Below, in pieces: positions 21,023 through 21,214 of a stretch of DNA of 23,963 bases. The notes beneath the pieces are model-generated. The model saw only the letters and a program-made list of their open reading frames with translations. It was not told the DNA's origin and did no database searches. The DNA is from Eledone cirrhosa (Eukaryota), in assembly GCA_964016885.1 (NCBI GenBank), contig CAXHJY010000014.1:1-23963 (forward strand), given 5' to 3'. Position 1 is the stretch's first letter; the number at the start of each line of letters is the position of its first letter. A program made the translations under genes and the position numbers.

Positions 21023-21214
21023 GAACGAGTAGGACCCCGACGGCTGAGCTCAAGCCGTTTCGACGGCTAATTCTGGACTCAGAATTAGCCGTCGAAACGG
21101 CTTGAGCTCAGCCGTCGGGGTCCTACTCGTTCCTATTACCCACTCTACTACCCTAAGTATTGAGTACTTTGGTGCGTTATGGTCCACCTGGTTCCTTACC
21201 ACATTTCCTCCGTT
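21023..21214 (+). mobile_element. 53-bp perfect palindrome containing the 3' half of a hammerhead, plus conserved tail
   Basis: Arms 21023-21075 and 21080-21132, loop GACT. GAAAC at 21094, stem III ACGGCT/AGCCGT around TGAGCTC, GTC at 21114-16. Tail ACTCTACTACCCTAAGTATTGAGTACT; flanked by (TA)n. Confidence 0.7.

Follow-up and report, generated by a model that had tools for sequence, protein, structure and literature searches.

A perfect palindrome in Eledone cirrhosa as a probable head-to-head pair of Penelope-like element 3' ends

A 110-base palindrome and its parts

How did a perfect palindrome come to lie between two TA repeats in the genome of Eledone cirrhosa, and did the fold of a ribozyme have a part in its formation? 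The window (the whole stretch of DNA analyzed, 23,963 nt) is AT-rich, non-coding and dense in microsatellites. An exhaustive hairpin scan (arm of at least 14, loop of 0 to 30) recovers exactly two complex perfect hairpins. The one under study, 21023-21132, has 53-bp arms (21023-21075 and 21080-21132) around the loop GACT; the other has 66-bp arms (14359-14424 and 14429-14494) around AGGA. The chance probability of a 53-bp palindrome, approximately 5e-25, is negligible. The scan thus returns the geometry given in the original prediction, made from the sequence alone. That prediction also described both palindromes as having 4-nt loops, (TA)n on the left and a longer, tailed right copy; all of this is seen, and each tail is followed by another (TA)n. 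The insert at 21023-21214 is 192 nt long, without an ORF, and is made up with its flanks as follows:

21004..21022, no strand: (TA)n target repeat, left flank, read from the sequence
21023..21075, minus: inverted tail-less copy, left arm, 53 nt; element end 9 nt before the tail hairpin
21076..21079, no strand: 4-nt spacer GACT at the junction, presumably loop II or the surplus length of one arm
21080..21093, plus: helix II region by position, the 14 nt upstream of GAAA
21094..21116, plus: probable hammerhead 3' half (GAAA, 6-bp stem III with palindromic loop, GUC)
21117..21132, plus: presumed 3' strand of stem I and linker, up to the end of the right arm, assigned by position only
21133..21214, plus: tail, right copy only, 82 nt including the hairpin
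21142..21167, plus: bulged tail hairpin (ACTC/GAGT outer stem, 2-nt bulge, 4-bp inner stem, then AC)
21215..21229, no strand: (TA)n target repeat, right flank

A probable hammerhead half in the right arm

The GC-rich right arm carries GAAA (21094-21097), a 6-bp stem III (ACGGCT/AGCCGT) with the loop TGAGCTC, the cleavage triplet GUC ending at C21116, and then GGGGTCC. The combination of GAAA, stem III and GUC occurs in 83 of 20,000 shuffles when the stem has at least 4 bp and in 3 of 20,000 when it has at least 6 bp; stem III in the relatives described below mostly has 4-5 bp. Judged by this motif, which stands at the expected distance from the tail hairpin, the right arm is likely the 3' half of a hammerhead, in agreement with the earlier reading of GAAAC, a 6-bp stem III with palindromic loop and GUC. 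The sequence that this reading called the 3' strand of stem I is likewise present; its identity is assigned by position only, because the partner strand is missing. Indeed, the native 5' strands of helices I and II are either missing or supplied by the inversion.

The CUGANGA core is absent: the window has ten CTGANGA matches, none of which lies within 21023-21215 on either strand, and GGACCCC is confined to the palindrome. Candidates for a core concealed in the junction or on the opposite strand have at best 2-3 mismatches and no stem II. The absence stated in the original prediction is therefore confirmed, but replacement of the core by the inverted copy presumes a parent that is unseen: no intact paralogue with the core upstream was found in the window, in genome contigs (exact tail pattern), in phages, in plasmids or in two published supplements, and hence the junction of 21023-21132 is not directly mappable. 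Self-cleavage by a ribozyme without a core is not expected; the non-coding insertion is presumably dead and inert.

An Rfam scan of the window gave 87 matches at E<=1, none of them to a hammerhead, and also missed the complete hammerheads. Its mir-5918 match over the palindrome (33 bits, with a cut-off of 69) reflects hairpin shape only, and we rejected a miRNA reading. A covariance model built from eight relatives did not match the right arm of 21023-21132 at E<=1 in the window; on this region alone it scored 9.9 bits, which come from the tail hairpin, the ribozyme half being misaligned.

Sister elements in the window

Four further features belong with the insert:

14359..14562, plus: sister structure, 66-bp palindrome with a complete type I hammerhead at 14427-14479 (covariance E 2.9e-5)
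20823..21003, plus: uninverted element end adjoining palindrome 21023-21132 on the left, hammerhead 20825-20902 (covariance E 3.1e-7)
5363..5388, minus: tail-only fragment between TA repeats, its hairpin 25/26 identical to that at 21142
15243..15345, plus: decayed element end, stem III remnant and hairpin with one mismatch (covariance E 0.089)

The covariance model finds the first two at 14426 and 20828 and, weakly, positions 5353 and 15240. A type I hammerhead descriptor gives three matches, namely both arms of the 14359-14494 palindrome and 20825-20902. The sister palindrome has its tail hairpin at 14500-14520, and its tail-less arm stops 5 nt before this hairpin. The uninverted element shows one core change, a 36-nt helix II, a tail hairpin at 20934-20956 and a 5' end at the edge of stem I. 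A minimal hammerhead is also found on the minus strand at 21340 (core at 21340, stem III ACGT); it belongs to a second family (21230-21487, minus strand) with a different tail and a related 3' end at 13521-13590.

The surroundings are themselves repetitive. Positions 20311-22002 form a dense nest of short elements inserted in one another's (TA)n flanks, with three inverted pairs: 20337-20593/21513-21774 (92%), 20743-20796/21948-22002, both copies of which start at the same point, 5 nt before GAAAC, and 21488-21528/21759-21799. At 3651-4168 lies an inverted 144-nt pair (99%) with a 188-nt spacer and no clear hammerhead; the 42-nt tail on its left copy has 13 nt in common with the end of element 20823-21003. 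We also observed a 5-kb G-rich hexamer satellite with a GC skew of 1.0 (8168-13177), a 72-bp tandem of about ten copies at 97% identity (1972-2679), and a decayed coding remnant (16600-17300), peptide pieces of which presumably derive from an RTE/Dong-type LINE reverse transcriptase. A SINE-like repeat, which we take to be one present in octopus genomes, recurs at 623-690, 1396-1444, 5070-5140, 18070-18119 and 20604-20710; a tRNA scan of the window gave no match. An origin of the junction bases by copying from nearby DNA was rejected, as these bases share just one 8-mer with two SINE-like copies, which we attribute to chance.

A bulged hairpin in the tail

Downstream of the cleavage sites, 25-56 nt away, lies a hairpin of 21-27 nt with the pattern RCTC-stem-loop-stem-TN-GAGY-AC. 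The window has four strict matches (14500, 20934, 21142 and, on the minus strand, 5388), compared with a mean of 0.025 and a maximum of one in 200 block shuffles; a relaxed pattern adds a fifth, with one mismatch, at 15312. By eye, the same hairpin stands at the end of Hydra-2_Amil and Hydra-2_Ajap, which belong to a set of six new Hydra consensus sequences (PMC8557442, File S7); of the other four, one has a looser hairpin and three stop without it.

We scanned a collection of genome contigs for the fixed bases of the hairpin together with (TA)n, demanding neither a hammerhead nor most of the pairs. This gave 30 matches in 28 loci. Eleven of these loci look like mis-binned animal DNA: although filed as bacterial genomes, they hold TA repeats, retroelement ORFs and many fragments of Penelope-like elements (PLEs). 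Ten come from one assembly (CBDDTI01; loci among L002-L024) and are thus not independent, and one is a symbiont scaffold (L018). The full hairpin is formed by all 13 matches in the animal-like loci and by 2/17 in the other loci. Core and GAAA stand upstream of the hairpin in 8/13 animal-like matches, although the pattern did not demand them, and all 21 covariance matches among the loci fall within these eleven.

Pairing in the hairpin appears to be maintained across families. The three pairs left free by the pattern all form in 11 of 12 distinct hairpins (window included) and in 3 of 13 controls. At the outer position, nine distinct hairpins have G-C and three have A-T; at the third pair, six have G-C and five C-G. 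In an alignment of eight related sequences, from which the structure itself was set by hand, 95% of cells are paired, and in 11 of 20 pairs both partners vary, three of these pairs being in the hairpin. Hairpin pairs were counted by script and on this longer alignment because MAFFT alignments of bare hairpins were out of register.

The relatives indicate to which element such ends belong. In L002, L018 and L023, an ORF ending in CNLC..E..N..CRH extends into a hammerhead, after which come the hairpin and then (TA)n. The Hydra clade of PLEs is described as having a C-terminal endonuclease with CxxC and CxH around E and N, a (TA)n target and canonical hammerheads (PMC8557442). Pfam matched GIY-YIG weakly in two of seven Hydra-like fragments; of 399 longer homologues, the best 120 are mostly of about 700 aa, with reverse transcriptase motifs that by eye resemble those of published Hydra proteins. 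Copy 21023-21214 has no reverse transcriptase or GIY-YIG ORF, such ORFs being found in relatives that have the same hairpin, and no ORF anywhere in the window ties it to a clade. It likely consists of two copies of the 3' end of a Hydra-clade PLE.

Three side observations concern the hammerheads of these families. The hammerhead at L009 3305 matches Hydra-2_Amil and ends tail-less. In L017 (1261-1308, minus strand), the 5' end falls 1 nt after the cleavage site of the family's hammerhead (compare L002), as a self-cleaved template would give; this is a single case. An AG stands 4 nt before the core in three of ten hammerheads (L002 2170, minus; L008 2293, plus; window 14434), two of them following a pyrimidine run, as in a splice acceptor; in Drosophila Penelope, an intron ends at helix I (PMC4209133).

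Tail-less ends stop short of the hairpin

In both window palindromes one arm ends before the tail hairpin, by 9 and 5 nt. Five related tail-less copies end 5, 6, 6, 3 and 3 nt before theirs, and an eighth comparison gives 5 nt by eye, the computed value of 20 nt being due to an internal mismatch. This spacing of 3-9 nt is common to inverted arms and uninverted copies: the uninverted tail-less copies at L003, L013 and L024 stop where the inverted tail-less arms stop. The hairpin thus likely marks where the reverse transcriptase of the element starts copying, and we infer that it fixes the upstream of two starts. A precedent comes from the Poseidon element of the anole, whose protein nicks each of the two target strands and extends it, and whose tail is delimited by a pair of internal start sites (PMC11167929; Fig. 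S1-S2 of that paper may concern the Poseidon stem-loop). Tails of the two window palindromes measure about 68-82 nt, compared with 30-40 nt in published elements.

In the literature searched, from which most subscription papers, Repbase/Dfam entries and figures fell outside, we found no description of the bulged hairpin or its fixed distance from tail-less ends, and the passages of the Hydra-clade paper (PMC8557442) covered by this search do not mention the hairpin. Both features therefore appear to be new.

Tail-only fragments between TA repeats were also observed (window 5340-5398, minus strand, and L009 1960-2060). They start about where tail-less arms end, and could be very short copies or the remains left after loss of a palindrome.

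Inverted junctions and 5' ends

Eight inverted junctions are available in all, and five lie in or within 8 nt of a hammerhead. That of 21023-21132, 14-18 nt upstream of GAAA, is the sole one in the helix II region; from this distance, it would lie downstream of the absent core and upstream of GAAA, provided that the parent ribozyme was complete. The junction of 14359-14494 lies at the outer edge of stem I, leaving both ribozymes whole; that of L003, at a contig end, 1 nt before the core; that of L024 1390-1606, 3-8 nt before stem I; and that of L008, in stem III. Three others are farther upstream of the core, by 54 (L024 2073), about 160 (L023) and about 350 nt (L014, at a contig start). Junction loops measure 4, 4, 1, 7, 8 and 11 nt, so that 4 nt is not general. 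In L023 (2070-2323, minus strand), a 20-nt segment is inverted at the 5' end without duplication, in the manner of LINE-1 twin priming.

Two junctions are informative in detail. In L008, a long tail-less arm is followed by an 18-bp snap-back, from which a jump at 3 nt of microhomology leads into a short tailed arm. L024 1390-1606 has the same architecture as the window palindrome and an uninverted relative, L003. Above the core, its tailed arm matches this relative over 14 nt and its tail-less arm over 9 nt, and L003 has no stem at the fold site. The 'loop' of L024 is thus mostly the surplus length of the longer cDNA, which argues against a general helix-driven fold-back.

The 5' ends of 17 pattern matches fall in the linker (two), in the ribozyme zone (eight, copy 21023-21132 included), upstream (three) or run off the locus (four), with zone limits partly estimated by hand; 15312 and L024 1383, found by looser criteria, were left out. 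Eight of 13 defined ends are thus in the ribozyme zone. For clustering there, P is 0.087 when the linker serves as reference and 0.017 when the comparison is confined to the first 200 nt; a constant rate gives 3e-4 but makes a poor null. Four of 11 ends lie at most 5 nt from the stem I edge, with 0.66 expected, in a test chosen post hoc. Clustering of breakpoints on the hammerhead, which had been proposed as a check on the original prediction, is accordingly suggestive only: five of eight junctions are near the ribozyme, but P values of 0.017-0.087 do not establish it.

Origin of the palindrome

Formation of palindrome 21023-21132 during integration of a retroelement is supported. Here the original prediction holds. 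Head-to-head insertion in (TA)n is a published form of PLEs. As to the manner of formation, we give somewhat better than even weight to a head-to-head pair of PLE 3' ends in (TA)n, consisting of cDNAs from two starts joined where they stopped. An endonuclease would nick both target strands in (TA)n, as is known from the literature for another PLE clade. With the hairpin positioning the reverse transcriptase, one strand would prime just upstream of it, giving the tail-less left arm, and the other at the end of the tail, giving the tailed right arm, so that each arm would be a separate cDNA. Synthesis of both cDNAs would end within the hammerhead, in its helix II region, and they would be joined by a template jump or a short snap-back, neither of which would need a ribozyme helix, before being filled in. 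Geometry, (TA)n flanks, a conserved hairpin and tail-less ends 3-9 nt before it are the directly observed support. Two cDNAs from two start sites also fit better than fold-back at a helix because the fold site of L024, the one junction for which an uninverted relative exists, has no helix in that relative.

The original prediction had cDNA folding back, or switching template, at ribozyme helices. Applied to this locus, a parent with a long natural stem II closed by GACT would have yielded a cDNA that folded on itself, one arm being copied from the other; we regard this as rather unlikely, but worth weighing. The center of the palindrome is 16 nt from GAAA, which implies a 32-nt helix II, and the neighbor at 20836 has one of 36 nt. 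GAAA is preceded by the conserved base C11.1, loop II has 4 nt in many Hydra elements (File S2 of PMC8557442), short snap-back occurs in L008, and a natural stem II would likewise leave a perfect palindrome with a 4-nt center. Folded as DNA, the inner 32 nt give -15.2 kcal/mol; the left half is, however, complementary by construction, so that this fold proves nothing, and 21080-21093 does not fold alone (fold energy 0). Furthermore, the other window palindrome also has a 4-nt center with no helix II there, L024 and L003 provide a palindrome without a parental stem, spacers are of 11-24 nt in 15 of 16 complete hammerheads, and snap-back alone leaves the stop at the usual tail-less end unexplained.

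The inner 14 bp may also have been made at the junction rather than being a true stem II, because AGCCGT (21087-21092), just before CGAA, exactly complements the 5' strand of stem III over 6 bp. In 16 of 16 complete hammerheads, the corresponding pairing before GAAA is of 0-2 bp. The AGCCGT pattern is what a first snap-back round a 4-nt loop might leave, and L008 may serve as a precedent for such a two-step join. Here the junction is in the helix II region, and five of eight junctions are near a ribozyme, but fold-back at ribozyme helices is not supported as a general mechanism: L003 has no stem, 14359-14494 folds at the outer edge of stem I, and three junctions are well upstream of the core, by 54 to about 350 nt.

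Another origin, put forward for rotifer Penelopes, is self-priming on an antisense template, by which the head-to-head repeat would be made before integration. The Discussion of PMC3846280 reads junction palindromes in this way, and the orientation here is indeed head to head. Nevertheless, in later in vitro work the template is a sense RNA and both target strands are extended on it (PMC11167929), and two primings agree with the fixed tail-less ends and with the unequal arms seen in L008 and L024, which makes this origin improbable. We consider a later inversion of the inserted copy, through repair of a DNA break or template switching in replication beside the fragile (TA)n, a slightly poorer candidate still. 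Fold-back inversions at breaks are well known (10.1101/2024.12.14.628481) and the arms are 100% identical, but repair would not stop a copy 3-9 nt before the same hairpin across several families and two genomes, at the very point where uninverted tail-less copies L003, L013 and L024 stop. A sequencing or assembly artefact from a fold-back read is very improbable: two palindromes at related loci (L003 and L014) stand at contig ends and could be artefacts, but both window palindromes are internal and bounded by element features, and diverged inverted pairs match in other loci (L008, L024).

Significance

The palindrome itself is a known by-product of PLE insertion; its value lies in recording the reaction in minimal form. 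The literature on PLEs already describes inverted 5' copies, one-sided tails and junction palindromes (PMC3846280, PMC8557442) as well as hammerheads with a palindromic loop III (PMC4209133), whereas the origin of PLE tails and inverted repeats and the role of the hammerhead are called open in PMC8557442 and PMC11167929. We may speculate, as a tentative scheme more doubtful than the two-start origin itself, that the hairpin of Hydra-clade PLEs loads their telomerase-like reverse transcriptase and sets two starts, the first 3-9 nt upstream of it and the second at the end of the tail, that a dimer copies from both starts onto opposite target strands, and that the hammerhead is a stopping zone, so that the two cDNAs would end together and be joined into mini-palindromes. 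If true, this would account in one scheme for the tail of PLEs, for their inverted pLTR and for a function of the ribozyme fold independent of cleavage. A 21-27-nt hairpin with compensatory pairs and a fixed spacing from tail-less ends lends itself to a direct mutational test. It is also a search handle for Hydra elements missed by Rfam, and it recovered animal-like DNA from bacterial genome bins.

Comparison with known systems

Hydra-clade PLEs (PMC8557442, Files S1, S2 and S7) share the (TA)n target and, by eye, the same bulged hairpin. Their type I hammerheads lie close to the 3' end and have a stem III that is short and closed (PMC8557442); the hammerhead is complete in the sisters at 14427 and 20825, and 21023-21132 has a probable 3' half only. 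The latter differs in lacking the core, in its longer stem III with a palindromic loop, and in having no ORF for placement.

In Anolis Poseidon (PMC11167929), too, the tail lies between two start sites, nicking and extension involve both strands, and copying begins at a stem-loop. The Poseidon stem-loop is AC-rich and lies inside the start of the ORF, whereas the window and its relatives have a bulged hairpin that covaries across families, with the upstream end just before it.

Non-LTR retrozymes (PMC4209133; 10.64898/2026.07.22.740005) resemble the insert in being short and non-coding, with a type I hammerhead of PLE derivation. We rejected this reading: retrozymes are head-to-tail tandems with complete ribozymes, whereas the copies here are head to head, the core is lost and there is no tandem array.

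In the LINE-1 twin-priming model, the segment that is inverted is a different, upstream one, whereas in the window palindrome the same segment is copied twice. The likeness lies in priming from the other strand, which leads to a 5' inversion joined by microhomology (10.1101/2024.12.14.628481; compare L023).

A similar architecture is that of the inverted 5' pLTRs of EN+ PLEs (PMC3846280; PMC8557442), with a head-to-head inverted truncated copy, an optional tail at one end only and a junction palindrome. By comparison, the window insert is 192 nt long without an ORF, its arms are equal and perfect, and the window tails are of about 68-82 rather than 30-40 nt.
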